In this document: positions 142-63,181 of the stretch, in pieces
How positions within the stretch are numbered: position 1 is the stretch's first letter
Layout of the letters: every line of letters begins with the position of its first letter
Assembly: GCA_001724265.1 (NCBI GenBank)
Contig: MEDY01000187.1
Span: 1-64,000, forward strand
Length of the DNA: 64,000 nucleotides
Direction of reading: 5' to 3'
Source: Rhizaria sp. SCN 62-66
Taxonomy: Eukaryota
Notes under the pieces: generated by a model
Databases searched by the model: none
The model's input: only the letters and a program-made list of their open reading frames with translations
What the model was told of the DNA's origin: nothing
Position numbers and translations under genes: made by a program

Positions 142-3100
142 TTAATATGGATCCAAAATGTGTACAATCCTGCCACTCCGCCGATTCAAAAATTGAAAGA
201 TGGAAAACAGCTGTGATTTGACCTGATAGTGTGATAATGTAAAGCCCCTGCGCGTTTGCCCATCACAATGCTGAGTCTCGAAATGAGTTAGTGCCACAGA
301 ATCAAAGGGATTCTCCTTGCTGTCGTGCTTCGAGGGCTCCTCGCCCGCTATGCACGACTTTACGCGACCAACAGGCACAGCGCCGCGCAGCAAGCGCGCC
401 GGGCAGGGCTTGAAGACGATGAACCACAAGATGTCTTGTGTGAGCGTGGAGGGCCGCCTCGCCTCTTGCGCAAACTCGCCGTCATCGTCGCGGTCGCGGT
501 CATCACAAGTGGGAATGACAGAGCGCGGGTACATCAGCACTGTACCGACGGGATAGATCACACCAGAGTCAATGTGCAGCGCCTTGTCAGCGAACCTTGT
601 AGCATCGCCCTCGTCATCGTTGTCGTCGTTATAAGCGGCGACAGTGGCCTTAGATCTCTTATCGGATGTGTCCTGTTTGAAATCTTTGGCGGTGACAGCA
701 GCGGCCGTGAAAGAATTGTACTCTCCGTAAATAATATCGTTATAAGGCAACGCCAACGGCGTCACACGACACTGTGACTTGCCGAGGGAGTTGTACAGTG
801 AGACATACGGCAGCGCCAAATCATCTGCACTCGCCCCAGCTGCAGCAGCAGTGCTGGAGGAGTCCAAGCTTGCACCTGCATGACCCTTGGGCACAAAGCA
901 GGTGTGCACACTACGCCCCAGCGCAGTACTCATCGCCGCCATGCGGAAGTGCGCAGCGTGACTCGGATATTTCTTATCGTTAAGCCAGATCACCATTGTA
1001 TAGTTAATAACCTCGTTCAGCTTCATGCCGCGGAATTGGAGGCTTGCAACAACGTCCGTTTCGCTCTGTTGAATGCTATCCGTAAACCCAAGCTTTTGCT
1101 GAGCACACAGAAGAATGCGTTCGCGCGCCCGGGCTTGCAACACACGCAGAGCAGCAGGAGAGGGGCTTTCACCATGGTCATAGATGCTCTGATCGACATA
1201 ACTAGTATTGGTGCTACTACTGCTAATATTGTTGCTGTTCTTGGCTGTCGGACGCATAGGCTTCGGAATGGGCACCCACTTGGAGGTCTTTTCACAATAC
1301 GTCAGCTTGCTTGGGTAACCAACCTCATCAAGCTCGCACGCAATATACGCATCGAATGCGGCTTGCCAGTCACCGTTGTGCTCTAAGGAGATATATGCAT
1401 TAAGTTCTTTCATCGTCCGCTGCACAGTCTCCTGTGTTACTGGTTTTGACTTTGACTTGGAATCAGAAAGTAAAGCGTGCAGTTGAGTTAGCTCTTTGAT
1501 GGCATCTGCTACCGTTCCGGCGTTTTCACCACCGCCATTGTTACCGTCTCCGTTATTGATGTTGTCCTCGTACAATGGTAGTTGCATGCAATCGATGTAG
1601 CGAAGAAGATCGAGCGCCTCAAGACCGCGATACTGTACGATTGCAGTCACAAAGGGATTCGCCGACTCATCCGCTTCTGTCTTGAACCCTGACTTGGAGT
1701 CGGCGTGAGAACTGACCCCTACCGTGCAGCACGTACGCAACACACGGAGCAGCCGTGTTATCGCCACAGTGGTGTCATTACACATCTTGTTTACCGGGCT
1801 TTTGGTGCCATCGTTGTTGATCGTGCTGCGATTGTTGCCGTTTTTGGTAATCTTGCGGTTGCCGCATGCCGTAGCCCTCAGCATCATAACGCAACACTTG
1901 ATGGCGGAACAGTCAAGCAGTTTCTGTGCTGTTTTGGACACGTTTGTTGCCGTCGACAGCATGCAGCCAAGCAAGCGCGCGGTGTTGCTGCGCAACGCGG
2001 GGAAGTTTTCGAGGTCAACCGACTCTCCGGATTGATAATGCGACAAAATGGTTATGAAAATGTTCTTAAGCCCTTCGCCGTGCCTCCCCTCAAGTAACAT
2101 CGGCGCAAAAGCGGGAAAGCAATCTGCAAGACTGGCTAACATCCCTAAAAGTGGTGTTACAGTCGTCTGTGAGATGTCAGTACCGTGGTCGGTGACCCAT
2201 TCGCTGATGCAAGGGAGCATCCGCTTCATAGTTTGCTTCAACATGATGCCATCTGCAGCAGAGGATTTGCTGCTACAAGAACTCATTTTTGCTTCGCTAC
2301 CAATGCCGTCGTCATTGCTGGCGGTATCATCGCTCATGTTGTTGCTGCTCTCGACAATGCCGTTCTGAGAAAGAGTTGTGACGGTGACGCAGAGATCAGT
2401 CAAAGACATTAAGTGCGGGTCACAGCACTAAACATCAGCCTTTATCATGTCAACCAACGCAACCTTCGAAAACTCATCACTTAGGCTGAACTTCACAATG
2501 TCATCCTTGTGGCAGTGCATCAGCACACTGTGCAGCACACTGTAGCAGAACGTGTGCAGCGACGAGCGCCGTGCCTCGTCCAACTTCGCATGGGCCCGGA
2601 TCTGAGACAATACCGGGGGGAGAAACGCACGGACGAGGCGGTATGGCGGAGGTGTTGACGGGGGCAGCGCGGGCTGCGCGTCGGCTCCTGCGATCGCCAC
2701 GGGGGCGCCAGAGCATAGACGGGCAATCATCAAGCACAGCAGATGATGGCGTAGTTGCACACGAAGGAAGTGCGGATCGTCCTCGGCGTCACCACGAGAC
2801 TCAATCTCGTCGTCGTCATAAGCACGAAACTCCACGTTTCCATGGTCGTCGTCTTCGTCGAAGTCAGCGTCAGTCATAACGCCATCGCTTTCGTTCTCAT
2901 GGGCGTCACTGTCGTGTTCTTCGCTGTCACCTTCTGCGTCACGGCCACTGTTGGCGAAGGGGTTTAACACTAGAACCTCATCTTCGACCGGGTTTCGCTT
3001 CATATACTCGAGCAAACATGCCAATACAGCGTGCCTCACAGCTGTTGTATCAGAAGACCACATTTGCTTTGATGTCAACACTGCTTGCATAATGCGCATC

Positions 3101-3783
3101 ACACGGTACGCCGTGCGCTTTGCGCCATACGTCGCGGTGTCAACGCGGTAGTTGCTACTGTCACTGTGGACACCACCAGAGGTACAGAGCAGGATGGTAC
3201 AGAGGCGCTCTAACAGATTAGGCGCCCCGCTGCAGTTACTCGCATGCGCCGCAACAGATTTTGCGAGGATATGGGCCCCGAATTTGTTGACAGCAACCGT
3301 GTCGTCATCGTCGATCAAGTCAATATCAGGCTCTTCGTACCGATATTCCTCCCTGATAACGTCAGAGGCAACGAGTGTCAGGAAAACTTGGAGGACGGCT
3401 TCAAGCAGCTTTCGATCGCCGAGGTTGTTGTCATTATCGGTGTCGCCGACGTTGTCGAACATCAAAAAACTGTTATTGCTGTCACTGTCATCGACATCGC
3501 CATCGTGGTTGTTGTCGTTGCCGTTGTCATTAGACGACTCATTCGCAGAAGGACCGCTGCGGGAGTGCGAGCTGGCGTAGTAGGATGCTGGCGAAAGCAG
3601 CTGCGACGCCAGGAACTCAAGCACACCACTCTCGCTCACAACAGCAAGGAACTTGGGCGTACGGCGGCACGAGTTTAGGACGCTGTTAAACTCATGCAAG
3701 CTTTTGATGAGGTCGGGCGGCGACGAGAGGGCGAAGATTGAGGCACACGCAGTGTGGAGTTGATGAAAATACTCACCCGACAT
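142..3783 (-). CDS. Hypothetical ~1213-aa protein, Leu-rich helical/ARM-like N-terminal half; one in-frame TAG at 2428-2430
   Basis: ORFs 2428..3783 and 142..2409 are in the same frame, joined by GAT GTT TAG TGC TGT GAC CCG CAC TTA ATG with no AT-rich intergenic gap. ATG at 3783, TAA at 142-144. No family recognised. Confidence 0.65.
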
Positions 3784-23853: not shown

Positions 23854-26800
23854 TTAGATGAAGATACTGGACGTGGTTTGCATGTCTTCGCAGGCCTTGG
23901 TCAGCACGTCGCGCGTCACCGCGGCCAGCTCGGCGCGTAGCACGAGCTCCCGCGCGATGACGCGGATCGACTGCGCCAGCGACTGCGCGAACGCGAACTC
24001 GCCGCCGTTGTCCCCACGAGCGCCCGCGCTGAAGCCAGAGCCCGCGCTGGCGTTGCTGTTGATGGGCACGGCGGCGCAGACGGCCAGCGCGGGCTCAATG
24101 TCGCGCTGCAGCAGGCGGCCTAGCTTGCCCGCGAACGTGTGCGCGTCCTTGGCCAGCGCGTCCAGCGCACGTGCACACGCGCGCAGCGTGTCAACGCCGA
24201 GCCCGTAGTGCGCCGACGCGGCGTGGATTAGGCCAACGCTGCCCGCGCCAGCGGCAGCGGTGCCCGAGGCAGCGGCGGCAGCGGCGGCCGCGGCGGCGAC
24301 AGCGGCGGCGCCGCCGCGGGACTGGATGTCCGAAGCTTCGATACTCGCGAGGTACACGTGGGCGGGCAGAAGCGTGAGGCCAGCGAGCGAGTGCGTCAGG
24401 CTGCGTGTGCTCGCGCCACCCTGCTGCTGCTGCAGCTGTTGCTGCTGCGAGGCGCCCCCGCGCGCGGCCGCGGCGGCCTGCTTCTGGTGCTGCTTCTGCG
24501 ACTGGAAGGCGGCCGTGATGGCGATGATCGTGTCCTGCAGGTACACGATGAACATGCGTGCGGAGACCGGAATCGCGCCCACGCCGGCGACGACGGCGTC
24601 CTCAGAGTCGTTACTGACGGCGCCGGTGAGGCTGGCGAGCCCGGCATAGGTGTTGTAGTCGCCGCTACCGACGCCGCCGATGCTGCTGCTGGCCGCCGCG
24701 GCCGTGGTGGCGGCGGCGGAGCGCGTGAGCGTGCGCAGCAACACGGTCGAGTGCGCCCAGAGCACGTACAGCCCCGTTTCGAGCAGCGAGCGCAGGGAGC
24801 CGTTCATCGACAGCACGGCCGCCAGGTCGCCGCTCAGCACAAGCGCGGCGCCGGCGCCGGCGCCCGCGGCTACAGAGGCCGCGGCGGAGCCGGAGCTGGC
24901 GCTGCTGTTAGCGAGCGCGGGTACGGGGGGGCGCGAGAGGGCGAAGAGCGGACGGTGAACCGAGTCGAAGCCGGTCACGGCAGCGGCGCTCACCGCGGGC
25001 TTGGCGCCCGCCGCGGGGGCCGCTGAGCCGGGCGAGAGACGCGCGGCGGCGAGGTGCAGGTCGCAGAGGGCGGAGCACACGAACTTGATGCTCTCGACCA
25101 CGGCCGACAGCGCGGGCGCGCGGCGGCCACCGGAGGCCAGCGCGCGCGCACTGCTGTTGCTACCAGCGCCGCTGCCAGTAGCGTTGGAGCCAGCGATCGT
25201 GAGAGGGTAGTTAGTGCGGCCCGAGGGGAGCTCGCCGGGGGGCATCGTGGACGCCGAGTACATGACGACCGCGCCGCTGTTGCTGCCACCGCTGCCCGAT
25301 TTAGCGCCGCCGCTGCCGCCGCTGAGGACGAGCGAGGCGGGCGCTGCCATCTCAGCGATGGCAGCGTTCTCGGCCGCGACGACGCCGCCCTGCTCGGCGT
25401 GCAGCTCCGACACCGCCACGAGCGGGTTAAAGCGCAGACTAAAGGGCAGCGGCGCGACGCCAAACGCGGAGACGGACGACGTGGGCGCGGCGCTGGCGGC
25501 GGCCGCGGCATTGGCGGCGACGGCGATGCTGGCCGAGGAGAGCGCAGTGGCGGCGGACTGCGCGGCGAGGGCGCGGCGCGTGGTGAGCGCGATGTGCGTC
25601 GTGCAGGCTGCCAGGAGCTCCCACAGTGCGCGCTGCACAGTGCCCATGAACCTACATCGGAGAACAAAGTCGACAAATAGAGACACATATGTGAGGATGA
25701 AGCAAGATAATGCGGACATTAGAAAAAAATTATGAAATCGAAGTTCAATGAAATACACACATTTGAGATACAAAAGATAGTTTGCGGAATGAACGACGTA
25801 CCTAGCTCCAGTCGAGCTGTTTGCGTTAGCGCTGCTGTTGTTGAGCGCGGCGAGCGTGGGGGCGAAGCGCAGGAGCGCGTTGGCGACGGGCCGCTGCGCG
25901 AGCGCGGACCAGGCCAAGCCCAGCCCGGCGATACCTGCGCCAGACCCTCCCGTCGCGGCGGCGGCAGCAGCGGCGGCGGCGGCGGCGGCCGCGGAGGCGG
26001 CGGAGGACGGCGACGAGAGCAGCGAGCCCAGCCCCGCGAGGCCGGGGCGCGAGGAGGGCAGCCCGCCCGCGGAGCCGTCGGCGCCCGCCGCGCTGCCGGC
26101 CGCGGTCGAGCGGGTCTTGGGCGCGAACATGGAGCTGCGCGCCTCGGCGACGAGCCCGCGCGTGGCGAGCCCACCGGCGCCTGCGGTGACGCTCGCAGTG
26201 GCCGCGGCCGAGGGGCCCGAGGAGGCCGACACGACGGGGGACCCGGGGGGCGCACCCGAGAAGGCGGACAACCCGCCGGCAGCGATCGAGCCGCGGCGCT
26301 TGGGCGTCGCGGGGCCCGCGTTGGCAGCCGAGTTGGCGGCGGCGCTCTTGGCGGCGGCGCGCGAGATCGCGTTGAAGCTGGTGCCGCTGCTGCCCGCGGA
26401 GTTGTAGTTGTTGTACGCGACGCTGTTGGCGTTGCTGCTGTTGACGGCGAGCGCGCGCTCGTGCTGCGTCACCGCAATGCAGCGCGCCTTAAGCGCCGTC
26501 TCGTCGCCCAGCAGCACGGTGACGACCTCGACGAGCGAGGCGAGGCGCGCGGAGACGACGGCCGCGAGCGGCGCGGCGGCCGAGGCGCGCCAGCGCGGCT
26601 GCGTGGCGTCGAGCGTGTGCAGCAGGCGCGCCGCCGCGGTTGTCTCGGCCACAGACTGCAGGCTCACCAGCGCAAGCGAGCAGGGCCGCAGGGTCAGCGT
26701 CAGCCGCGCGCGGTGCGCGTGGACAAAGCCGCCGACCGCGGTGGGTACCAGCGACCGCGCCAGCGCCTGCGCGCGGGCGTCGCCGCTCGCGCTTGCGCTT

Positions 26801-29800
26801 GCGCCGCTGCTGGCAGCGCTGTTACCGCTGCTGCTGTACGAGTGGAGCAGCGAGGTGAGCAGGCCGAGCGTGGCGAGCCAGGCGCTGTGCCACGGGTTGG
26901 TGTGACCGGCCGCGGTGTAGGCGAAATGCGGCGCCAGCAGCGGGACCATACCCGCAGTGTTCGCCTTTGCTGCGGCACCAGCCAGGCCAGCGTTGCTCGC
27001 CCTGGCGCTGCTGCTGTTGCCGTTGGTGTGGTTGTTCGCAATGAGCGAGTGGAGACGAGATTTGGGGTTGTTGATGAGCGCCGACAGAACGCGGTTGCTG
27101 TGCGTCGCAAACGCGCCCGCGCTAGCCGCCGCGCCGACCGCAGCGGCGCCGGCGCCCGCGGTGGCCGCAGCGGTGGCCGCCGCGGTAGCAGCATGCTTGC
27201 CTGATGCTGTGTCGGCAAAGGCGAGCAGCGCCGACAGCTGCGCGCTGAAGGGCAGCTCGGCCGCAGTGGTGGGGATCTGGATCGAGCGCAGCTCAGTGGC
27301 GATATTGACCCCCGCACGGACACTACCGGCGCCGGCTGCCGCGGCGGGCTTGGCGGAGGACGCAGCGGCGCCCGTGGCCGTCGAGGAGGCCGAGGACGGG
27401 AGCGAGGCGATGGAGGGCGCGACGACCCAGCGCAGCACGGGGTCGTTGCTCACGGCCGCCGCGGACAGCATCGGCATCGCATACGCCGCTGAGGAGACTG
27501 ACAGCGACATGACGCCGCCGGCACCGACGCCGACGCCAGCGCCGACGCTCTTGGCGACCGCGCCGAAGACGCTGCTGCCGCCGGCGGCCGCGCTGACGCC
27601 CACGGCGGACTCGGCCCCGGCAGCGCCGGCGTTGACGGGCGTGGTGCGCAGCGGGGCCGCGGCACAGACGGCGGAGGCGGCCAGGAACGCGGGCAGCTTG
27701 GTGAGGCGCGTGACGACGGCCACCAGCGCGGGCTCCGACAGCGCCGGGCGCGACAGCGGGCGCACCGCGGTGGCGAACGCGGGAGCGAGCGCGCACAGCG
27801 CGCTGAGGCTCGCGCTGCTGGTGCTGTTGGCGCAGCCGCTGCTGGCGGCGGGCGCGAGCGTGAGCAGCGCGACGAGGTCGAGGATGGCGGTGACGCGGTG
27901 GCCCTGCGCGGGCGACGCGCCCATGGCGAGCGTGAGCAGCAGCGGCGTGAACACGGCCACCTCGCCCAGCGCCGCCGTCGCCAGGCGGCGGATGCGCGTG
28001 AGCGCCAGGATGTCCGTGTGCAGCGCGGAGACCACGCCGGAGACCGCGGATGACACGCTGCCGCTGCTCGCGCTGCCGCTGGAGCTGGCAGTGGAGGCGG
28101 ACAGCGCGGCGGCGGCCGCGTTGCTGAGCAGCGTCGAGTAGAGCGCGTGCGCGGAAGTGAGGCCGCGCAGCAGCAGCGGGAGCATCTGCAGCGCGAGGTC
28201 ACACAGCCCCGGGACGGCGATGAGCGTGGTAACGAACGGCACCAGCGACGCGCAAACCGTCACGAAGCTCGACCCGCGCAGCAGCGAGACGAGCCCGAGG
28301 CCCTGCACGGCGCCCGTGACGCTCACCGTGGCCGCAGCACCGGAGCTGGAACGCGCGAGCGCGGCGGCGGCGGCGCGGTCGTGCAGCTCCACCATGGCGC
28401 GCACCAGCGGCAGGAGCGCGTTGACCAGCGCCGACACGACGGGCAGCAGCGCGGCGGGCACGGCGGGGCCGCGCGCGGCGGTCGCGGCCGCAGACAGCGG
28501 CACACCGTCGGGTGACGCGACCGTGCTCGTGGCGGCGGCCGCGACGCGGGCGGCGGCGGCGGCGCGCGCGGCAGTAAGCGCGGCCAGGGCCGCGGCGCGG
28601 GGGTTCGACGCCGCGGTCGTGACCGTGCTCACGGTCTTGACAGCGTCAGAGACCGTCAGCGCGGTGCTCATCTTAGCACCGCCAGCGTTCGCACTGTTGC
28701 TGCTGTTAGAGGACGCAGCGAGCATGTCGCAGGCGTTGGTGTCGTGGCGCGCGGTGGCGGCCTGCGTCTCGCGCGCGAGCGTGACGAGCGCGGCGAACGG
28801 CGCGGTCGCCAGCGCCGCCGCGGCGGCGCCGGCGTCGGACGAGAACAGCGCGGAGAAGCGCGAGTGGGCGGTGTACCGGGCGTCGCTGCCGTCGTCGGCA
28901 CTGCCGCCAGCCGCGCAGCTGTCGCTGTCTGCGTTGGTGGCGTCGGTGTCGAAGCAGTAGCCCTCGTCGATGTCGTCGTCGTCCAGCGCAGCAGCGCTGT
29001 TGCCGTGACCACTACCGCTGCTGTTGCGGTGCGAGTGCGTGCTGGTCATCGTAGTGAGCGAGCCGAGGTCGAGACTGCCGATGTCGCTGCGGGCGAGCGC
29101 GACGAGCGTGGGCGCGCAGGGGTGGCCCGACGACGGCAACGCGACCGACTGCAGCACGGCGACCGAGACGGAGGTCAGGCCGTGCACGAGCGACGCCAGC
29201 TCGGCCATCACGGCGCTCGTCGCGGACGCGGACCGCGGCAGGTAGCCCTGGCTGCCGTCGGCGCCAGCGGCAGAGGCGCCGCGGTTGGGGCTGCTCGCGC
29301 TGCCCGAGGTGGCGGCGGCGGCGGCCGTGGCAGTGGCGTTCATGTCCGAGAGCAGCGACTGGAAGAAGACGGACCAGCGCGGCGACATGAGCAGCGCCGT
29401 CAGCGGCGCCGCGTCCTCCGCGTTACCGCCCAGGAGGCTCGCGACGAGCGCCGCGGCCTGCGGTTGCGTCGCGGGGACCAGCGCAGGCGACAGCAGCGCG
29501 GCCGGCGCGGCGGGCTCGGCCGCGGGCGCGGGGGCCGGCGCAGCGGCGGCGGCGGCGGCCGGGTCTGAGGGCGCGAGCAGGAAGGAGCTGTGCACGAGCA
29601 GCAGCGAGGACATGTCCTGCAGCATCGCGGTGCCGAAGGGGCCGGTGCCCGCAAAGGGCGCCTGCGCCTGCGCCATGGCCTTGATCAGCCGGCGCACGTA
29701 GACGATCGGCATCGGGCTCACGCTATTGGTGCTGACGCCTGCGCTGCTGGCGATGATGCTGTTGAGCGTCATCGTCGCGCTTGGCGCCAGCGAAGGCAGC

Positions 29801-32800
29801 GGCAGACTACTCGAGCTGGAGCTGGAGCCGCGGCCGGAGACGGGGGACGCGGGCGCGGCGGAGATACCGAGCGGGGGCGGCGGGAGCGCGCCGAGGCCAA
29901 TAAGCCCGGGCTGCTTCGCCAGCAGCACCTGCACCATCGAGCCCCACTGGCTGACGAACGTCACGCGGGCGTCGTTGGCGCGCGCGACGCGCGAAGAGCG
30001 CAACACGAGCGAGAGCAGACGAAGCGACTGCGCGGCGCGCGCGGCGACGCGGACGAGCACGGCGGGGTGCGAGGCCCGGACGCCGAGCGCGGCGAGATGA
30101 AACAGCACGAAGAGCGCGTCGGTGCCGGCAACAGCGTAGAGCTCCGCCAGGTGCGACGCCGCCAGGAAGCGCGGCGCAGCCTGCACGCGCGCGGCCGCCG
30201 CGGGCGTCCAGAGCGGGCAGTGCGGCGACAGCAGCGCGCGGCGCAGCGCGTGGCACGTCGTCAGCCGCGTCTGCGCCTGCGTGGCCGCGGACACGGGCAC
30301 AACGCCACCTCTGCTCTTGCCACCGTCGTCGTCCATCGCGGAGCCGGCGCTGCTGGCACTGCTGCCGCTGGCGCTGCTGCTCGAGGTCGAGGTGAAGGGG
30401 TTGACGACGGCGGTGGAGCGCGAGCTGCCCACGGCCAGCATCGCGGCCTGCCAGCGCGACATCCACAGCGACACGCTGGGCACCGCGGCGCCGCTGCTGT
30501 CCCTCGCCACGGAGGCGTCCTTGCTCTCGTCCTCGAAGCTGTCAGACATCGCGCCGATGCCGCTGGCCTTGCTGGCGGCGCTGTCACTGTCGCCGCCGCT
30601 GTTGTACGTGTTGTCGTAGTCGGTCGCGATGAACGCGGACAACGCGTCGACGCCAGACATGCCGCCCAGGTACTGCATCGGGGCCGCAGTCGCAGACGCC
30701 GCGGCAGCGCTGGCGGCGGCGGAGGCGGCGACGGTGAAGTACATGGCCATCTCGCTGGCCCAGAACACCTCGTCGTGTACGAGCCCGTCAGGGCCCAGGC
30801 CGGCACAGGCTGCGGCGGCATTAGCAGCGTCGGCGTGAGCGGCGCCGTCGTCCTCGTCGTCGTTGCCGTCAGCGTTGTTGGCATGCGCACCGCTGCGGGC
30901 AGCGAAGAGGGCCTCGCCGTCGTCGTCGCCGGCTGCGTGGCCGCCACGCGCGCTGCCACCGCCGATGCCGGCGAAGGCAAAGGACGAGCTTGCGCCAACG
31001 TCGCCGCCCTCGGCCGCGGCCGCCGCAGCAGCCGTGGCCGCCGCGGCGCGCGCCTGCGCCTCGGCGGCGACGAGAACGGCGCGCTGCGGGGCCGCCGGGT
31101 ACGCGCTGCGCCAGACAGACACCACGCCGCTGGCGTTGACCGGCGCAGAGGCAGAGGCCGTAGCGGTGGCGGCGGCGGTGGCGACGGGGCACGAGGCGAG
31201 CACGTTGGCGGCCTCGGCCGCGGCGTCGTCGACGTCGAGGGCCGTGAAGGCCCAGCCCTGGCGCAGCCAGAGACCGGCCTCGAGCTCAGCCTCAGCCTCG
31301 GCCTCGACCTCACCGGAGTCGGCGCCGCCCGCGGCCGCAGGCGCGAGCGTGCTCGTGGTGGAGAGCGCGGACGAGGCGCGCGTGAAGGCGAAGCGGCCGG
31401 CGCCGGGCCACTCCTCGTTCGCGGCGGCGGCGAGCGCGGCCGCGGCGGAGCCGTTGCCGTTGGGGGTGATGGGAGCGCCGTCAACAGCGAAGGACGGTGG
31501 GTAGGCGAAGGAAAAGTCCACGTTGCTGCCTGCAATGCCGCTACTGCCTGCGCTGGCGCTGCTGCCACCGAGGAGCGACTCGTCGATGTCGCTGCCCTCC
31601 TGCTGCTGCTCCAGCTTCTGCTGCTGACTCAGCAGCAGCGCGAGGACGAGCGCGTCGAGCACGGCCGTGCGGTGGCTGTTAAGCCCCTTGGCCAGCGCCA
31701 CCACGTCGCGGTCCAGCGCGCGCCGCAGGGCCCTGACGTTGACTAAGGGTGAGGCGCGCGCGTCCCAGGACCAGAGCGAGGGCGCGGCGGGCAGCGCGGC
31801 GGCGGGCGCGTAGCGCGACAGCGACACGCCGAGCTCGCGCGCGCATTGGACGAGCGCGGCGTCGCCGGCGTGCGCGGTGACGTTGGTCGCGGCGTTAGGC
31901 GGCAGCAGCGTGAGGTGCGTGAGCCACGAGTGGTGCAGGCCCGTGCGTACGAGCTCGCCCAGCGCGGACCGCAGCTCCGACGGCAGCAGCGAGCGCGAGC
32001 CCGCGGCGGCGGACGCGGCGGCGGCGGCGGCCACGTGCGACGCCGGCTGCGCGCGCGCGCGGGCGGCCTCGGCGACGACGATGCGCATGGCGGCCGTGGC
32101 GCAGTGCGTGTTGAGCGTGTACAGGTCGCAGCCGCGGTCCCAGCTCGTCGCCAGCTCCAGCGACGGCGCGGTCGCCAGCGAGTGCGCGGGTGCCGTCGTG
32201 GGCAGGTGCGTGACGGCGTGCGCGAGCGCGGGCACCGACGGCGGGCGCAGCGCGTACGGGTCGGCGTCGGCCAGCGTGTGCGTCGGGTGCATGTACGAGA
32301 CGGTGAAGGACCAGAACGACGGCTCTGCGGCCAGCGCCGTGCGCGCCGTGGCCAGCGCGCGTGTGCTGGCGATGACACCGACCAGGGTCAGCGCCTGCAG
32401 TGCCAGCGCGCGGCGCGACGCGAGCGCAATGGGCTCGGCGCCCAGGTACAGCGTCGGCACGGTCGCGGAGTCGGACGCGAGGCGCTCGCGCGCGCCGTCG
32501 GCAATGATGCCGACGATCGCGGGAACGATGTTGGCGTTGTTCGCCGCGGAGGCATGGTTGTTGTTGTTGCTGCCGGCGGCGGCGGGCGGGATGCGGAGCA
32601 GCGCGCCGAGCAGGGGCGGGCATGCGTGCGCGGCGGCGAGTAGCAGCTCCAGCGCCGACTGGCGCAGGTGCACGTGCGCGCGCGCGGACGCCACCACGGG
32701 CGCCAGCGAGGTGCGCAGCGCGGCGCTCATGGCTGACATCGTCAGCAGTGCGAACGTGTTCACGCGCGCGCTGGCGCCAGCGTCAGCGCTGTTGAGCGCA

Positions 32801-35800
32801 GCGGCGGCGGAGGCGGCGGTGGGCGCGGTGGGTAGTGGGCCCGAGCGGAGCAGCAGCGCGAGCGAGCGGTAGACGAGCGCCTTGAGCTCGGTGGTGATGC
32901 TGCCGGCGAGCACGGTCACGAGTAGCGAGACCAGGCCGACGGGCGCGTGGGGGCCCGCCAGAGCGCCCGCGCCCGCCGAGGTGAGAGCGCTGGGCGCAGC
33001 CGAGGCGCCCGCGGGGACGGTGACCGCGAGCAGAGCCGACAGCACCGACGGGGTCGCGCTGGCCGACGACAGCAGCGGCGGCAACGAGGCCACCGTGACC
33101 GTATTCCCCGCGCTACTGTTGCTGCTGCCGCTGCTGCTGCTGGCCGGGATGGTGAAGGTGAGTGGGGCCGGGGGCGCGGGCGCGAAGGGAGACTCCTTGC
33201 TCATGGCCACGTACACATTGCCAGCCGCCACAGTTGCCGCGGACGCAGCCGCAGCAGCCGTCGCCGAGGCAGTGCTACTGTTCGCAGCAGCACTGTTGGG
33301 CGCGACGACGGCCGATGCGTTCTGCAGCGAGACGACCGCGTGCAGCAGCGTGAGCGCCTGCGACGCAGCGGCAGAGCACGCGGAGGCGATGGCGCGGTCG
33401 CCGGCGCGGACGGAGGCCGAGGACGCCGCGGCGGCAGCGGCAGCGGCGGCGGCAGCAGCGGCGGCGGCAGCCGCACCGCTGGCGGAGGTGCCCGCGGCCG
33501 AGGCGGCGGCGGCGGCAGCGGCGGCGGCGGCAGAAGGAGTCAGCAAAGGCTGCGGCAGCGAAGCGAGCGCGCGCAGCAGGACCGTGAAGAAAGCCGTCTG
33601 CGCGGCGCCGGGCTCGCACAGCAGGCTGAAAAGCAGCTGGCGCGGGTCCGCCGCGGCGGCGGCGCTGTCGGCCGTGGCGCTCGTGGCCGCGGCCGCGGTG
33701 TTGAGTGCCGTGGCGGCGTCCTCAGACATGGGCAGAGAGAGCACGGTGTTGAACACGGCGAGGAGCTCGCTCACGGTGTGCCAGTACTGCACCTGGCTCT
33801 CATAGTCGCCCGCGGTCGTGGAGGCGGCGCCGCTGTTGGCGGCAGAGCCCGCGATGGTGTCGCGCGCGAGCGAGACGAGGACCGTGCGTGCGAGCAGCAG
33901 AGTCAGGCCGCACGCCTCGGTCAGGCTGACGTGCGCGGCGATGCTGCGGGGCACGCGCACAGTGCTCTTAGCGCCGATCGAAGCAGTACCACTGCGAGCT
34001 GTACTACCGCTGCCAACGGTGCTGCTGTTGGGGGTGGCAACAGTGAGAGGGTAGAACTGGCCGTTGCTAGACGTGCTGCTGATGTCGACCATGGCGCCCG
34101 CGCTCGAGTCGCTCCACCGCAACTGCGGCTGCTGCAGCTGCTGCTGCTGCTGCTGCTGCTCGGCACTGCCGGCGTTTTGCGCCGCGCCGAGCGCGTGCGT
34201 GGCGGCGGTGACGAGCGGGTCGTAGCTGGGCTCGAGCAGCGCCGTGCGCGCGCGGCGACAGTCCTCGAGCAGCGTCGCGGCCGTCGCCACGGCCATGCGC
34301 GTGACGTCGAACGCGCACAGCGGCGCCTCGACCGCGCTGCACAGCGCCGCCACGGCGTCCGTGAAAGACAGCACCGCGGCCGACGCGGCGCCGCCGTTGC
34401 CGACGCCGCTGCCCGTGGAGCCCGCGCCCAGCGCGCCGCGCGCGGTGCCGGCGGCGCTGGTCAGCAGGCCGCTGATGCCGCCATAGCCGACAGCGCTCGC
34501 GGTGAAGTGAGTTGTCGCGTTGCTATTGCTGCTGCTGTTCTTGCCACGGAGACCGATGCCAGCGCCGACGCCGACGTTGTTGCCGCCGTTGTTGACGGAA
34601 GCGAAGGCGGAGGAGGGCGCGGGGGCGGCGACGCGCGCAGCCATGGGCATGACTGCGACGAGCGCGCGCACGAACGCGGGCGCGTCGGCCGTCGCCGCGG
34701 CGGAGAGAATGGCCAGCGCGCTGTGCGCGGCGCGGTAGACGAGCGCGGGGCCGCACTCCAGGCCGGGCACCGCGGTGACGACGGGGAGCGACACAGCAGC
34801 GGCGCCGACGACGGAGGCGGCCGCGGCGGTGGCGGAGGCAGCAGCGGCCGCGGACGCAACGGCGGGGACTTCGCTGGCGCTGTAGCCGTTGCCGTAGTTG
34901 CCGTAACCGTTGAACTGAGAAGCAGAGAGCGCAGCAGCGGGGATCATAACGCCACGCGCGGTGGCCGCGGCCACAGCGGCAGCGCCGCCGGAGCCAGCGG
35001 TGGCGAGAGATGACACGTACGCGGCGCGTGCGGCGGCGGCGGTGGCGCCCGCAGCGAGACTGCCGCTGGCACTGGCTGTGTAGAGGCTGCTGTAGTCGGA
35101 AGCGCCGCCGTCGCTCATCGCGTCGCCGGCACCGGCGGCGTCGCTGCTGGCCGAGGCGGCCGCGGCGGCGGAGGCCGAGGCGGAGGCAGCGACGAGACGC
35201 AGCAGGCGCGCGGTGATGGAAGTGACCGTGAGCGCGCTCTTGGTGTTCTCGTCGAAAAGATAGGCCGCAGTGAGCGCGTCGCGGGTGCCGTGAGTGTACG
35301 TGGCCGAGACGGACTTGACGTGCGTGTCGATGCGGGCCAGCAGCTCGGGCTCGGCAGTCGTGACGCGCGCCAGCAGGTGCGCGAACGCGGTCAGAAAGGT
35401 CAGGTCCACGGCGGGGATCGAACTCACGTCGACGCCCAGGCGCGTAGACAGCAGGATGTGGTGCGCCCACGACAGGAACAGCGGCCACGCGGACCAGGAC
35501 AGCGACCACTGCACCAGACGCACCTTGCCGTCTGGACTGGCGCTGCTGTTGGCCCTGTTCCCCGCGTTGTTGTGGATGTGGATGGAGCTGTAGTCGTCGC
35601 CGTCGTCGTAGTAGTGGCTCGCCTCGGGGTTGTTGTAGTCGTCCTCGCCGTTGCCGTTGTTGTAGTAGCTGTTCTGGTAGCTGCTGCTGCCGACCACGCT
35701 GCTCTCGCTCACGGTCGACTGCAGCGACAGCAGAGAGGACGGCTTGAAGCCGCCGCTCTTGCCCATCGGCGCCCCCGCCGCGCCCGGCGTCACGCCTACG

Positions 35801-38593
35801 CCCGCGGCCGCACCAGCAGCGGCGGCGGCGGCAGCGGCGGCTGACGCAGTCGCGGGGAGCAGCGTGGGATCCAGCGCCGAGCCGACCGTGCCGGCGGGGA
35901 CAAGCACGCCGCACGGCGCGCGCCAGGGCTTCGTGAGCACGGCGCGCGTCGTGTCCGCGGGGTCCACCGACAGGTGCGACAGCGGTGGCATCGGGGTCGT
36001 CAGCGACGGCACGGCCTGCAGGAACGCGCACACGCGGCGCGCACAGGCAGCGGCCACGGCCGCCGGGTTCGCGGCCGCGGCGGCGTCGTTGGACATGAGG
36101 TTCGCGTTGCAGCTGTCACCGTCGTCGCCGTCGTCGTCGCTCTCACCGTCGTCGGGACTGCCGCCGCTGCGGGCGCCACGCACGGCGTTGCTGTTGTAGC
36201 TCCAGTCGAACGCCGTCTCCAGCCCCGCGTCAGCGACCGCGGTAGACAGCAGCGCGGCGGGCACGGCGTCGCGCAGGCGGCGCTGGCCACGGTCAATGCT
36301 GCGGACGCAGTCGCCGGCCACAGCGGCGGCCGAGGCGCGCAGCAGCGTCTCGTAGTCGAGCACGGCCGAGTCCTTGGCGTCGGCGACCGAGAGCGCGCCG
36401 AGCAGTGGCGGCGCAGCGGCGCCCGTGGCCGAGGGCGCGGTGAGCGGCCCGCTGAGCGCGGTGAGCAGCTGCAGCAGGCGGGTCGCGCCCGACGGGCACG
36501 AGGGCAGGGCCGCGGTGAGCAGGGCCTCGTCCACCAGATGGAACTGCACCGAACCAGTGCCCGAGGTCGCGCTGGAGCCGACGGCGGCGGCGGCGGCGGC
36601 AGGGGCGCTGTTGGCGACGGTGAGCGGGAGCGAGGCCCAGAACTGGCGGCACAGCGTGCTGTCACCAGTCACCAGCGCGTTGAAGAGCGCGAACATGTGG
36701 TTGTAGGCCACGGTGGTGAGCGAGGACAGCGACTGCGCGCCGGCACGGAGCGCGGACGCGCACTGGGACTCGAAGAAGCCGCGGATGAGGCCCGACACGA
36801 CGGCCTTGAGCAGGGGCGCCACACGCAGGTCGCTGCCGCTGCTGTTGCCGCTGCTGATGCTGACTGCGTTGCCGTTGCCGTTCCCGGCGGCGGCGGCGAG
36901 CGCGGCGCTCGTGTGGCGCAGCGTCACGCCCACGGTCGCGGCCGCGGTGGAGAGCAGGCGCGCGAGCGAGGCGGCCGTGGTGACCGTGAGCGCAGACGAC
37001 CCAGAAGCGGGGACAGTCACCGCAAAGCTCGCACTCGCGCTCGCGCTGGCGGAACTGCTGTTGTTCGCAGTGTTGATGACGGCGGCGCCGTTGCAGAGGC
37101 GGTACTGCATGGTGAAGTTGGTCAACGTGGCGATGGCGCCGAGCTTGACGGCCGTGGTGAGCCGCTCGGCCACGACCTTCATCTCGCCGACCTTCTGCTG
37201 TGATTTGGCCGACTCGGCCGCGACGTCTGCGCGCGACTTGCCGTCCTTGACCGCGGTCACGAGGTCTTGGAGCTCGAAGAAAAGCGCGATGTACGTCGCC
37301 CACGCGAGTTGCAGAGGCCCGTGGCACGGCAGCGTCGTCCAGTCGTAGGTGAAAAAGACTTCGTCCAGGTACTGCAGCGCCGCCGGCTGGTTCAGCGGCG
37401 CGGCGGCGATGGCGGCCGCGGTCGACAGGAACAGGCGCGCGGCAGGCCCGCGGGTCGCGCCAGACAGAGAGCTAGAGCTAGAGCTTGCGCTAGAGCTGCT
37501 GCTGCTGTTGGCGGTGCGCTGTTGCTGCTGCTGCTCGCGGTCCGCGGCGTCGTAAAGCGCGTGCGCACGGGAAAGCGCCTCGATGTCGAGCAGCTCGATC
37601 AGTAGCAGCGACAGCAGCGAGGCAGTGCGCTCCGTGACCGCGACGCCGTGCGGCGACAGGAACGACGACAGCGGCTGCGACGCCGCGGACGCGAACGCGC
37701 TCGACTGGCACAGCGTCGCGAACGTGATGAACGGGCTCGCGTCCGCGCTCTTGTTCGCCGAGTTGGCGGAGATGGCGCCGACAGCGGCCGGACGCGGGAC
37801 GCCTGCGGCGGCGGCGGCGGCGCCAGAGCCGGCGGTGCTGTTGTTGTCGTAGTGGAGCCAGGCGAGCGTCTGCACGAGCGAGAGCTGCTCCTCGACGCGG
37901 GAGTCGGCGCAGAGCGTCAGGAAGTCGCTCTGGGCGTGGAAGTCGAGCTGCTGGGGGGTCGGCACCAGGGGCGCGAGCAGCGACGCGCGCAGGCTGTCGA
38001 GCAGCACGGACGGCAGGCCGCCCGCGACGAGGCTGGTGAGCAGCTTGGCAGCGGCGTCGTGGTAAAAGTGCGCGGGCGAGTGCGCTGCGCTGACGATGGC
38101 CTGCAGCAGAGAGAGCAGTGCCGCGCGCTCGGTGAAGTAGTACATGGCGATCGTGGTCTTGGTGACGAGCGTATCGCCGGCGAGCGTGGGCGCCAGCGAG
38201 AGCACGCCGCGCACGAGCGCCGTGTACGTCGTCCACTCGTCCACGTGTAACAAGGAACTCATAGTGCTCACGGTCGCCTGCCACGACGCGTGCAGCTTGC
38301 CTTTCTCCGCGGTGTACTTGTCGCTCGCGCCGCCGGCCGGGGCGGGGAACGCGCTATTGGCGCTGCCAACGCCCGCGGTAGAGCTGCTGCTGCTGGTGCT
38401 GCTGGTGTTGGCGAGGCTGGAGAGCGGCGCCAGGAACGCCGGCTGCAGACTTTCTAGCAGGGTTGCCATCGCCGCGGGCGCAAGGGTGGCACCCTCGAAC
38501 TGGCTCAGGGTCTCCGAGAACGGGGGGTACTTGGCCTTGCTGTTGCTCGAGACGGGCGGCAGAGCGGCGCCGGCGCCGGCACCGCCGCTGCTG

Positions 38594-38644
<51 letters not shown>

Positions 38645-58351: not shown

Positions 58352-61300
58352 ATGTCAAATGATTCATCTGACGACGATTTTCTTAGTGTTAGTCCTGCGC
58401 TTCAGAAGCGGTTAGATGCGGTCCAGCAGCAGGTCAACGAGCGCCTTCTTTCCGAGGCTCGTGCACGCCAAGACGCTGCCGACGCCTCTGCCGCTCGCAC
58501 CCATGCCGCTGCCTTACGTAAAAACGAACGTTATTTGAAGAAGCATGGGAAGCAGCCTTCTGGCGTGAGTCAAAACGCTGTCCTTGCCGCAGCGGCCACT
58601 TCTGCGGCACCCATTGCAAGGCAACGGAAAGAGTTCGTCTTAGACCCCACCACGAACAAATTTTACCGCACGACCGTCACATCACTGCCACCAAGTAGTT
58701 CGCTTGCGGGCAATTGCGTCCTCGTTGCTACAGCTAACGACAGCCTTGCGATCAGCGAGCCTCCCGCCGCCCCGTCTGCAGTGCCCATCACGACCGCGCT
58801 CGCAGCTCGGCGGTGCGCTTCGCAGTGTGCTTCCCAGGCTTCATCTCTCTCAACGAGCGGCTCCGCGACTGCGAGGCCACAGTACGGCCCCATCGCGGTT
58901 GCCGTGCATTCGGCCGTCGCGACGCCGCTGAACCTGGCTGCGCCGGGAACCGGCACGCTGCCCGTGCTCGCCGCCACCGTCGCCACCGTTGCCGCCGCCG
59001 CCGCCGCCGACCGCAACCACGCCCATCACGCCCACACTCGAGCTGACATCGCCAGCAGGCTCACCCCGCCTGCTTCACCGCCGCACGCGGCGCCGCGCCT
59101 GTCAGCTGCCGGCGCCGCAGCGTTTGAGCGCACGACTGCGCGCGCCGCTGCCTGCGGGCAGGCGTTTGGCTCCGCGCTCTGGTTCCCCGCGCCGCGCCCG
59201 TGGCCGCAGCGGCCGACAGGGCTTCAAGTTGCGCCGGCGACAGGTGCGTCCGCTTTTATAACGATCTTCCACCATATATTGAATGACTTGCACGTTTATG
59301 TGATTCTCTACGGCTCTGCCCTTGGTGTTGCATCTTTCGTTTACATACCAGCGTGCCGATGTGCACAATGATTACTGATTGTGCTTCACGGACTCATTTC
59401 ACATTTTATCCAACGTTTTAACATCGTTTTTCCTTGTATAGATGTGATTGTGCGCGCGCTTGGTTTCAACCTGACTGCAACACCATCCGACAGCCATGTT
59501 GGTCACAGCAACACCACGCTGCTTAATAGCCGTGGTCATCGAAGCATGTGCGCCATTGATACTACTCATACGGTGGCTCACACTGAAACTGCGTCGCCGT
59601 CGACACTTACAGTGTCATTTCTTGGTCAATCTGCCGATTTCTCTGTGTTGCGCAAGCCCTTACAAATGCACCAAGCATCTGCGAGCTTTAGTAACGCTAA
59701 TAGTGTATTAGTAATCCCTGATTTGTCGCTGTTGCAGACTCACCCGGTCCGTCGGCTGCTGAACAACAGCACGGCTGCTCGAAGTCATAGTAATATTGGC
59801 CGCGATAACAGTCAGCAGTCGCACGGTCAGCGCTCTCACCCTCAGCAGTTGCACAGTGAACTCTCTCAACGCTCGCACGGTCCGCACGGCGTGCGCGTGC
59901 ACTCACGAGGCGGCGCCGCTCATAGTCATTCACAAAGGTAGAGTGCTCGCCACGCGGAGGCAGACAGCGCAGACTCTGACGATGCCGATGAACAGGAGCG
60001 GGAGCGAGAGTTCTACCAACAGCACTTCGCGACGCCGGAGGTTCCGATTTGCTCCGTTTTGCACTTGTCCAACAGTGTACTATGTACATTTCAATCCTAC
60101 AGCACCACTTGCACTCACCCGCTGAATCAACGAACTGATGAAGAACAGTCGCGAAACTCAAACAACAATAACAATCCTACTAACAATAACAATAATAACC
60201 GCAATCGTAACTCGAACACTCCGAGTGGTAACATAACGCAAGCACCTGCTGCATCAGCTAATCTAGCTGGCCTCGACACGCGGTACAGCTGGGACGTGCC
60301 CTCCGCGGCCGCGCGGCGCCGGGTGCTGCTGGCGTGGCGCCGCGAGAGCGCGATCGCGAGCGACCTGGACAACGCCGGTGGAGCACGTGCTGCTAACGCT
60401 GAGGCTCGGAGTCGTCACAGTGGCGCCACACAGACTACGGACACTCCGAGCGGCAGCATGACTGCCGCGGAGAGTGTCGCAGGGTCTGCATCTTCAGCAG
60501 CGTTGAAGCCATTGCTTTCGTCTTTGTCATCGCAGTCGCGGGTGCTTACGACGAGTCGGCTCTTGTCGACTGTCGCCGAGCTTGGTGCTGCGGACTCCGT
60601 GGCTGCTCTTGACTTAAACGATGCCAACTTGGCCTCGACATGTGTCGACATGAGCAAGGATGATGATGTGTCGCCCCCACACGCAGTCGACGCAACGTAC
60701 GACATGAGCGTGACCCCGACATTTGAGTTTCTTCCTCTACGTCGCAGTGAGTTTTTTTCGAACAGTCGGCGCCATCAGTCTTGCGGGGCTCCGAGCAACG
60801 CCGCGAACGTTCTCGAACATCGTCTTCCACAGTCCGACCCGTTACCCGTGATTATGCGCGCATTCACTGGCGAATTCACGCCCGATGGCACTGGTGGCTG
60901 GGTCGAGATCATTACTCCGACAACAACCCCACCTGCATCACGGGGGGCCCATGCCACGGACGCTGCTCCCACAGTCACTGCGATGCCGCCGACCTGGTCG
61001 ATCGTCGCTCGCGTCCCTTTCCCCGGCCGCGCAGTCGCAGACGCCGTGATTGCGTGGCCGCACACTGCGCGCGCGGCAGCGCTTGTGCGGTGGGCCGAGG
61101 GGGTGATCGCCGCCCGCAGTGCTAAGTGTCGCATCCATGGCCTCAATTCGTGCAGCAGCGACGGTACATGTGACTGTGAGCTGCGGTGGGCTGTGCTGCG
61201 TAAATGGGGAGACAAACACGGAGTAGCGGTAAACTCTTCTGTGTCATGTGACTCCCATTCGCACACTAAGTCTGCGGTTACCACGGCGGACAGCACGATC

Positions 61301-63181
61301 GACGTGTTTGTCGCGGCTGACAAAGCTGTCTGTCACGTCCAGTGGCACAGTCAAACACCCACTACGACTTCACACAGCACTTCCCAGTCGCAACAGCAGC
61401 GCGGACAGCAGCGCCAGCCGCAACATCAGCAACGGCAACATCCGCAGCCGAGCCGCCGCCCCCGCGTCCGCACTCTCGCGCTGGCGGACAGCGCCGTCCT
61501 GCGCCTCGCGCCGGCCGCGCCGCAGACAAGGTGGCGCGGCTGCGTGCTCACAGCGCGGCGCGACGGCGCAGTGCAGCTCGTCGACCCGCGGGCACCGCCC
61601 GCAAGGCACCATGGCTCCGAGAAACCCAGTGCCGCGCTGAGTCAGGCGGGCGGTGCTGGTGCTGGTGCCGGCGCTGTTGTGGCGCATTTGGCGCAGTTGG
61701 GCGGCGCCGTGACGTGGCTACACGCGTTTGGCGAGGCCGACGCCACAGCGGCGTGCGCGCGTGCTGTGCTGGGAGGCGACTGCAGGCGAGGGCGACGTGC
61801 GGTGAAGCGCAGCAGCCATGGTCAGCAGCTTGGACACCATCGTGTGAGCCATCACGTGAGCGATTCCGAGAGCGACAGCGATGAACGCGATGGTGATATC
61901 GACTCCGACCGCGAGAATGAGTCCTGGTATGATGTGACAAAGGTTTATCGCGACAGTGACACACGCGCGACGCCACCATTTGCGTCAACACAGGCCACAC
62001 CAACCCCTAGCAGTGCATGCGATAGACTGAGCGGTGTCGGCAATCCACACTGGTTTGCTGCTGCGTCCACCGACGGCACTGTCTGCATTGGCGACATCCG
62101 TCGCGGTTCCTCGCCATTGGACAGCACCGCGAGCGCAATCGCCCCCACTCAATCCGAGCATATCACGCCGTCGTCGCCGCTCTGGGGGCTGGCGCGCGCT
62201 CCTACCGCCTCAGAGCGCGCGCAGTCGCAGCCGTCAGTGCTGTATTCGCTGCGCGGCCATCCCAGCTCCGTGCTGCCGTTGCGCGGTGCTGTGAACACGC
62301 GGGAGACGGCAGTGTTTCTGGGCGGTGGCGACGGCGTCGTGCGGGCGTGGGACGTGGCCACGGGGCTCTCCGTCGCTGAAGTGGCCGCGATTCCCGTGTC
62401 ATGGCTCTCGAGTAGCATGCAGCCTAAACCGAGTTTCATTGGAAGCAATGCACACAACAAAAGCGAGAGCTCCCGGACATCGCTATTTGGGAATGTTCCG
62501 ACAGATTCAGTGACTCTGGCACGTACACACCCGGCTCAAGCGTGGCAGCAGGCCCCGTCGCCTGCCGTCGTGCTCGACAACATTCGCACGGCCCCCTGGG
62601 CGTAGGGCCAGACATCGGACAGCGACAGACTTGGCACGATCGAGACTGGCACATGGTTGAACTCGAACAGCTCTCGCCACTGCCCAGTACACTCTACTGC
62701 TGCTGATGACCGACCCACTCGCGCTAGCAACGCTACAATGCATTCTTCGCATTCTTCACTTACGTGCCCCGGTTGCCGATTGGCTGTCGCAGCTGCTGAA
62801 GCTGAGTGCCGAGCTCGGGGACAGTGGGCGGGTGCGATTGGCCGTGTTATGAACACTCTTGCAACCACTGATGCAGATGCTGTGCGCACACAGATGAGCA
62901 TCAGTCGCAAAGACAAGGTCGCTGGTAAGAATGCAAGCGATGCGCCCAGTGACGACGTGACGCCACAATTTCAACCGCCGCGTGTCTCGTTTGCACTCGC
63001 GTGGGATCCCTCATGGCAAGGGCTGTTTGTGGCGCACGAGGTCGAGCACTGTGCAGTGTCGGTGCCCCCACGTGCGAGTGACCGCGCGAATGATCATCGC
63101 AACGGCGAGAGCGCAAGTGGAGCAACCACAGCTGTAGTGATGAAAGGTGGCATCTCTGCATTCCACTTTCCCGGACTTTGA
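58352..63181 (+). CDS. DCAF4/WDR21-like WD40 protein, ~1543 codons; exons 58352-59243, 59442-63181; in-frame TAG at 59939-59941 and 62603-62605
   Basis: N-terminal FVLDPTTNKFYR and WD40 motifs TARRDGAVQLVDPR, AASTDGTVCIGDIR, LRGHPSSVLPL...GGGDGVVRAWDV follow the DCAF4 order. Phase-1 intron 59244-59441 (GTGCGT...TATAG). ORFs 59381, 60059 and 62657 share one frame. Ends in TGA. Confidence 0.7.

Follow-up and report, generated by a model that had tools for sequence, protein, structure and literature searches.

The window analysed here, 64,000 nucleotides (nt) at the start of contig MEDY01000187.1 (C187) of the Rhizaria sp. SCN 62-66 assembly GCA_001724265.1 (34.9 Mb in 714 contigs, with spliceosomal introns and GC-rich exons), opens with a minus-strand gene whose reading frame is crossed by a TAG. 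In this genome UAG is almost certainly a sense codon. The account that we consider probable is a nuclear variant code that uses UAG sparingly as a sense codon, most likely for glutamate (Glu, E), read by a tRNA(CUA) with the body of a tRNA-Glu, with UAA and UGA serving as stops; the window gene would then make one protein of 1213 amino acids (aa). Decoding of the TAG had been proposed in the initial annotation from the window alone. It is backed genome-wide by the tRNA(CUA) gene, by in-frame TAGs in the genes for eRF1, five kinases and a Ubc6-type E2, and by the scarcity of TAG at gene ends, so that what had been taken for an independent local instance is instead one genome-wide code.

Read from 3783 down to 142, the gene runs through 1213 codons in one frame, and the TAG at codon 452 is the only internal stop. 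Two open reading frames (ORFs), in frame and separated by one TAG and six sense codons, had been described with no strand given; they are confirmed, on the minus strand, with 18 nt between the TAG (2428-2430) and the ATG of the 755-aa ORF. Standard-code annotation truncates the proteins of this organism, and that 755-aa half therefore stands alone in the database, as protein P0001. The parts of the gene are the following.

142..3783, minus strand: one gene of 1213 codons that belongs to a large family of paralogs, with helical repeat-like N-terminal and middle regions and a divergent cyclophilin-fold C-terminus.

2431..3783, minus strand: the 451 codons 5' of the TAG, with the ATG at 3783-3781; residues 221-440 match the family profile.

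2428..2430, minus strand: in-frame TAG, codon 452, in the context ...IKADV*CCDPHLMSL; very probably decoded, most likely as Glu.

142..2427, minus strand: the 761 codons 3' of the TAG; residues 524-811 match the family profile.

145..1200, minus strand: cyclophilin-like C-terminal region (model with a predicted local distance difference test score, pLDDT, of 61.8; no Pfam or PDB sequence match).

142..144, minus strand: genuine stop codon, TAA.

The profile in question was built from 28 relatives with the query left out. Residues 221-440, before the TAG, match its positions 87-237 (E 3.6e-11) and residues 524-811, after it, match positions 272-515 (E 3.6e-47); because a single family profile matches on either side of the TAG, and in order, the two halves are one gene. 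Nor is the TAG a sequencing error, since contigs from two other studies keep it: one from run X4 (study P3), spanning 137-2692, differs from the window at six places but not at 2428-2430, and one of 178 nt from run X5 (study P4) covers 2357-2534 without any difference. Downstream of it, all five X4 differences are synonymous (P about 0.001); upstream, three of eight are synonymous and the other five alter four codons. As had also been noted by eye, the gene is among the least GC-biased of the window: its GC content at third codon positions (GC3) is 0.64 on the 5' side of the TAG and 0.59 on the 3' side, against 0.75-0.93 for most of the other long genes. Two other ORFs, at 58352-59371 (0.63) and 41581-44217 (0.65), are equally low, and the gene taken up below at 59546-63181 also has a low GC3.

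A candidate decoder is at hand. A pattern search brings up a tRNA gene at G000:C84:76008-76080 whose anticodon is CUA. It lies on the minus strand of a contig that also bears kinase and kinesin genes; a T run follows it. It scores 58.0 bits in Rfam, with all pairs standard (tRNA-Glu(CUC) scores 58.3). Free folding gives the acceptor and anticodon stems only (z -1.5). In a comparison with 22 other isoacceptors it is identical to Glu-CUC at 47 of 73 positions, to Glu-UUC and Gly-CCC at 40 each, to Gln-CUG at 33 and to Gln-UUG at 27; its first five acceptor pairs are those of both Glu tRNAs and its T stem is that of Glu-CUC. The variable loop is short, and the anticodon loop has A36-A37-A38 where the Glu tRNAs have C38. 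That trinucleotide is the isopentenylation site typical of tRNAs for codons starting with U, and it would therefore point to adaptation of this tRNA. One copy was found, as against at least eight matches for Glu-CUC. The gene is presumably expressed, and its product probably carries Glu. A suitable pattern for a CUA tRNA with a glutamine (Gln, Q) body gave none (42 matches, 35 assigned through ARAGORN and five as Ile/Leu copies by matched letters). None of 29 fixed-spacing pattern matches is a tRNA(UUA), in an assembly that may be incomplete, the only TTA-like match being tRNA-Lys(UUU). ARAGORN labels the tRNA(CUA) 'Pyl', a label that follows the anticodon only; pyrrolysine decoding can be rejected, because the tRNA has a U1-A72 pair and a Glu body. 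The identity of tRNA-Pyl lies in a G1-C72 pair and G73 (PMC9976931).

The gene for the release factor also holds an in-frame TAG. All three candidates of an eRF1 family search were scored; one is an eRF1 gene, and the other two are parts of a Pelota-like gene. The TAG of the eRF1 gene (L032:1594-1596, on G000:C63, minus strand) is codon 111 of 441 and aligns without gaps to human E107, a column that holds E in 106, D in 10, V in one and Q in none of 117 eRF1 homologs; Guttulinopsis and exLh also have E there, as judged by eye. A metagenome scan for relatives of this eRF1 returned 34 loci, 33 of them distant and one an identical genomic contig (L230) of another assembly, with the same TAG; the two may share their source.

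The protein itself is changed in its N domain (human numbering): T32S and G57S, each found in none of the 117 homologs, T58K, found in one, L124M and K130Q, with E55, NIKS, S70 and YxCxxxF retained. Its closest relative, P0020 (84%), shares T58K and retains T32 and G57; its organism may represent a sister lineage that uses the standard code. Residue 57 is G in 26 of 26 standard-code taxa, S in 14 of 22 taxa, many of them related, in which UAA and UAG (together UAR) mean Gln, and A in exLh (PMC5304391 Fig. S2, by eye), and T32 bonds the third-position G of UAG (PMC5304391). T32S and G57S may weaken recognition of UAG. A simple eRF1 story is not helped by the nearly normal behaviour of human T32S in vitro (PMC3632111) or by the occurrence of T58K in five standard-code ciliates (PMC5304391). 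The GC3 of the eRF1 gene is 0.90, and its only AAA codon directly follows the TAG (chance about 0.06-0.08); autoregulation through this TAG is possible.

Genome-wide counts set TAG apart from the other two stop triplets. In a scan of 1.02 Mb for stops with coding sequence on both sides, 16 of 1945 TAG candidates lie in coding context, as do 0 of 1490 TAA and 3 of 8500 TGA candidates; the focal TAG is missing from the 16 because the scan model was trained on GC-biased genes. Among 133 kinase matches, nine are interrupted by TAG only, one by TAA only, none by TGA only and four by mixtures, and the nine TAG-only matches resolve into five internal codons and four true splice acceptors. In a Ubc6-type E2 the in-frame TAG faces an Asp of yeast Ubc6. 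Twenty-two long frames of focal-gene paralogs contain 16 TAG, no TAA and no TGA in 16,213 codons, some of them three or four TAGs in a single frame (a 23rd frame, which enters non-coding DNA, was excluded); as random nonsense changes this pattern would have a probability of about 1e-5, a figure to be read with the frames having been partly picked for openness. Conversely, the 48 confident gene ends predicted in 640 kb by our own gene finder, a small sample, are 28 TAA, 19 TGA and one TAG, and the one TAG lies within a polyQ run. Another 22 TAG candidates were scanned against Pfam, with a single domain match; searches with DEAD (one TAG in 43 matches), kinesin (one in 51) and ABC (none in 20) domains gave no usable site, the DEAD and kinesin TAGs being acceptor-like and at the match edge behind low-complexity sequence. 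UAG followed by CARYYA is a 3' context of programmed stop-codon readthrough, and readthrough of this kind is not supported, the motif following none of 44 TAG sites (the +4 base is C in 20, G in 10, T in 7 and A in 7).

UAG is nevertheless rare. The 170,552 predicted codons include 31 TAG, 6026 GAG, 836 GAA, 5931 CAG and 1020 CAA. By extrapolation, the whole assembly should contain roughly a thousand or more in-frame TAGs. The proposal that UAG is used mainly in weakly biased genes holds, with one qualification: per 10,000 codons there are about 10 TAGs in the paralog family, which is weakly biased, and 1.3-2.9 in predicted exons, but a TAG also lies in the strongly biased eRF1 gene. The mechanism that we consider probable is as follows. 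The single tRNA(CUA), built on a tRNA-Glu body, would decode UAG, most likely as Glu; T32S and G57S in eRF1 may weaken its recognition as a stop; and decoding would probably be costly, one tRNA gene standing against at least eight for Glu-CUC. Such a cost would account for TAG being held to about 0.5% of GAG usage and gathered in weakly biased genes like the focal one.

Glu is the probable meaning of UAG, rather than a certain one. Pfam bit scores summed over six TAG sites are 375.0 with E, 373.4 with K, 373.1 with Q, 370.2 with S, 365.5 with Y, 362.9 with L and 361.5 with W; Leu, Tyr and Trp, at 9.5-13.5 bits under Glu, are rejected. The Glu ancestry of the tRNA also has precedent as a guide, having agreed with codon meaning in Oligohymenophorea sp. 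PL0344 and in Blastocrithidia (PMC10553269, PMC12153298). Several observations weigh against Glu, and some of them favour Gln. The margin of E over Q and K in the Pfam sums is less than 2 bits. At the TAG site of kinase L093 the 16 closest homologs have Q six times, K four times and E once. TAG flanks are Q-rich 3.7-fold and E-rich only 1.25-fold, with several TAGs lying within polyQ runs. In 29 paralog columns that hold TAG, Q is the top residue in six and E in two, and the E-Q score is -4 (true E sites score +52, true Q sites -46), which matches neither residue. At the eRF1 site, the closest relative, P0020, has V. Part of this is expected under either meaning, because CAG to TAG is a transition and Q-like contexts would arise even if UAG is Glu; such transitions pull fast-evolving families towards Q. 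A model weighted for mutation leaves Q at 0.009 or less in 8 of 8 settings, but it is unstable, its result shifting with the subset of sites, and it favoured E solely in the 16 long-frame sites.

That UAG is a sense codon for Gln (the pattern of table 15) is an unlikely reading, yet one to be taken seriously. It would require either that the Glu-bodied tRNA(CUA) is charged by glutaminyl-tRNA synthetase (GlnRS), which in E. coli is known to recognise tRNAs by way of an amber anticodon (PMC9976931), or that a Gln-derived tRNA(CUA) is absent from the assembly. The contexts and homolog columns just listed are its support. Against it are the resemblance of the tRNA to Glu-CUC rather than to either Gln tRNA, the failure of a suitable pattern to find a CUA tRNA with a Gln body among the 40 of its 42 matches that were assigned, the want of a single Q in the eRF1 column with its 106 E, the unstable weighted model, and the transition that would give Gln-like contexts under either meaning.

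A more doubtful proposal is that the meaning of UAG is ambiguous, with the single tRNA(CUA) competing against an eRF1 that still partly stops at UAG, or delivering a mixture of Glu and Gln (the mixture taken by itself is improbable); the TAG of the eRF1 gene would then exert negative feedback on the level of eRF1. The great rarity of TAG beside GAG, the retention of E55, NIKS, S70 and YxCxxxF in eRF1, the placing of a TAG, with the sole AAA codon of the gene behind it, in so strongly biased a gene, and the mixed residue signals all suit this idea. It is opposed by the finding of TAG at no secure gene end, by the lack of the CARYYA readthrough context, by paralogs that carry three or four TAGs in single frames, and by P0020, which has no conserved stop at the position of the eRF1 TAG.

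The remaining alternative of substance concerns the focal TAG alone: in a genome whose code change is real, this one triplet would close an in-frame intron of 27 or 36 nt as its 3' end. Some findings count against translation of this TAG. No RNA contig crosses it among the sequencing runs compared; a contig of 315 nt from run X7, at 1301-1615 and of depth 2.6, may be DNA, and run X6 is probably DNA. The alignment of homologs, which had been expected to show the residue at the TAG, shows a family consensus about 11 residues shorter at this site, and deletion of 9 or 12 codons fits the profile equally (180.3 and 179.3 bits, 180.9 for the full protein). Moreover, TAG is a common acceptor here, ending 15 of 42 introns, and CTGAT sits 7 nt upstream of it. 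The splice sites and sizes argue the other way. The gene finder made for this analysis recognises 42 introns forced by a frameshift or a stop (one counted twice), with GTACGT as the commonest donor. Thirty-eight span 124-636 nt, and the four shorter ones have poor splice sites. As an acceptor, the focal TAG scores -1.0, under all 42 (lowest true score -0.3), and the donors score -2.3 (27 nt) and -0.3 (36 nt), in the bottom 0-2%; on the kinase TAGs the same model gives 4.6-7.5 to the four true acceptors and -6.1 to 2.0 to the five internal codons. The paralogs, besides, are single open frames across this region, and the focal protein holds other, larger insertions relative to the profile. The 36-nt intron that the initial annotation had offered as an option is thus disfavoured by site scores and intron sizes, with homology fitting the shortened protein equally, and a tiny intron of either length is highly improbable. 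The longer option, of 207 nt (2428-2634, donor 2634, score 4.9), is rejected: it removes profile-matching, family-conserved residues 384-452 and costs 23 bits (157.5 vs 180.9). The focal TAG is, very probably, translated.

The standard code, under which the focal TAG would be an error of sequencing, a nonsense mutation in a paralog undergoing decay or the stop of a distinct gene, can draw on broken family members such as L201 and L222, each in two frames, but is exceedingly improbable, given the TAG kept in X4 and X5, the five synonymous strain differences downstream, the profile that spans both halves in order, an eRF1 that would end at codon 111 of 441 (with the same TAG in L230, possibly from the same source), and the contradiction posed by that TAG together with a tRNA(CUA).

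Two further TAGs of the window lie in frame in a low-GC3 gene at 59546-63181 on the plus strand.

59939..59941, plus strand: second in-frame TAG of the window, scoring 0.2 as a splice acceptor.

62603..62605, plus strand: third in-frame TAG of the window, followed by ~190 further codons to the TGA at 63181; acceptor score 4.0.

The last of these is less secure and may be spliced out, because its acceptor score, at about the tenth percentile of true acceptors, leaves splicing open.

The focal protein belongs to a large family. A genome search with its C-terminal 352 residues gives 175 matches; most genes contribute two of them, hence about a hundred paralogs. A degenerate cyclophilin domain has thus been greatly expanded in this lineage in particular. 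Many of the paralogs lie near contig ends and some are split in two frames. Relatives in the database number 14 (684-981 aa). An AlphaFold model of the C-terminal region from 14 sequences (mean pLDDT 61.8) aligns to cyclophilin folds with a best Z of 8.9 (root-mean-square deviation 3.5, 147 residues aligned, 10-18% identity), and the top 35 rows of the list of structure matches are cyclophilins or cyclophilin-like folds, as judged by titles. At the level of sequence this domain has no Pfam match at E 0.01 and no PDB match, and Foldseek gave no match at E 0.001, cyclophilins nonetheless ranking first and third. The domain also differs from cyclophilins in its attachment to a region of helical repeats, an architecture found in about a hundred paralogs. 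Folding from a single sequence reached a pLDDT of only 31.6. For the N-terminal region all Atlas matches are sub-threshold, with clusters of ARM/HEAT type as leads. The catalytic Arg and His of CypA, at what we take to be their positions, look replaced by eye. The protein would be a helical scaffold that ends in a probably inactive, protein-binding cyclophilin domain. In P0004, P0007, P0008 and P0010 the same cyclophilin-like C-terminus is preceded by a zinc motif of B-box type and a stretch resembling a coiled coil (by eye), in place of the helical repeats, an arrangement that recalls TRIMCyp fusions.

Directly behind the focal stop, positions 1-139 of the window match a high-depth repeat in X4 (depth up to 583) and an X7 contig; this is probably a mobile or repeated element. 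The neighbours in 4615-57283 include genes for a GNAT, a Sel1-repeat protein, a cyclin, a GABA transaminase, an ABC protein, an EDR2-like protein and (by eye) a delta-COP-like protein, and every predicted end among them is TAA or TGA. The minus-strand ORF of 5113 aa at 23854-39195 has no Pfam match in two overlapping pieces; it begins with FG-type repeats and for that reason is perhaps a giant nucleoporin. The window protein that had been called DCAF4-like has no match in Pfam. Elsewhere in the assembly, the 18S rRNA gene (L035:1503-5930) is very divergent, with three large insertions (about 1.5, 0.46 and 0.55 kb) that are probably group I introns, the first of which seems to carry an ORF, perhaps for a homing endonuclease.

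The sequence of eRF1 points to the lineage of this organism as Sainouroidea (Cercozoa), near Guttulinopsis: all eight short eRF1 motifs compared are also in Guttulinopsis vulgaris (PMC5304391 supplement, by eye), five of them being in just one of 117 other eRF1s, that of P0020. Homologs of the GABA transaminase include four relatives at 75-80%. The sainouroid exLh uses UAG for Leu, with UAA and UGA as stops (PMC5304391). The two cases are alike in the reassignment of UAG alone, probably in the same cercozoan clade, and in a changed eRF1 G57 (Ala in exLh, Ser here). They differ in that Leu scores 12 bits under Glu here, in the short variable loop and Glu body of the tRNA, and in the far lower usage of UAG. 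Guttulinopsis, seemingly the closer of the two, most likely has the standard code, and a Rosculus gene ends in UAG (PMC5304391); the change considered here would therefore be independent of that in exLh and the second in the clade.

Among other codes, that of Oligohymenophorea sp. PL0344, with UAG for Glu and UAA for Lys (PMC10553269), likewise has a tRNA(CUA) derived from tRNA-Glu, with 69-93% identity to tRNA-Glu there and 64% here. UAA, a sense codon there, is the main stop here (28 of 48 ends), and the pattern search found no tRNA(UUA). In Blastocrithidia and peritrich ciliates UAR means Glu (PMC12153298, PMC5304391). These too have a tRNA-Glu(CUA) and avoid the reassigned codons in highly expressed genes; they differ in coupling UAA to UAG (Blastocrithidia also recodes UGA) and in genomes described as AT-driven, whereas GC3 here is near 0.8. 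Codes in which UAG alone is sense, with UAA and UGA as stops, assign it to Gln in Iotanema spirale, Hartmannula sinica and Trochilia petrani, to Leu in TARA phyllopharyngeans and to Ser in Scotinosphaera (PMC5304391, PMC11687900); T32 of eRF1 is also changed in Iotanema, to Gly. Those lineages are unrelated to the present one, where the residue is probably Glu, and in phyllopharyngeans 78-91% of genes use UAG, as against a small minority here. In the Discussion of PMC11687900, the codes that reassign only UAG have Leu, Gln or Ser, and UAG as Glu is listed solely together with UAA as Lys. A search whose coverage omitted most subscription journals and bioRxiv supplements found no published report of a UAG-only code with Glu or of a second sainouroid code, and the assignment of UAG alone to Glu, with UAA and UGA as stops, may be undescribed in a nucleus.

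A fuller scenario can be offered as speculation, and as a whole it is doubtful: that the Glu code arose within Sainouroidea independently of exLh, in a GC-rich genome, and that usage is held low by a single tRNA-Glu(CUA) facing an eRF1 still partly competent for UAG, with the UAG of the eRF1 message as feedback, so that the organism is an 'ambiguous intermediate'. Feedback on eRF1 through its own UAG would be a eukaryotic parallel to the frameshift of bacterial RF2.

Nuclear genomes nearly always give UAA and UAG one meaning; where UAG alone is known to have departed, it stands for Leu, Gln or Ser. If Glu is the true meaning here, the code would be a new one, and a second change in one cercozoan clade would make Sainouroidea a hot spot outside the ciliates. 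For this organism the tRNA gene is available along with eRF1, whereas the transcriptome study of exLh had to do without the tRNA. The very low usage of UAG, together with a UAG inside the eRF1 gene, makes the choice between codon capture and an ambiguous intermediate a testable question.

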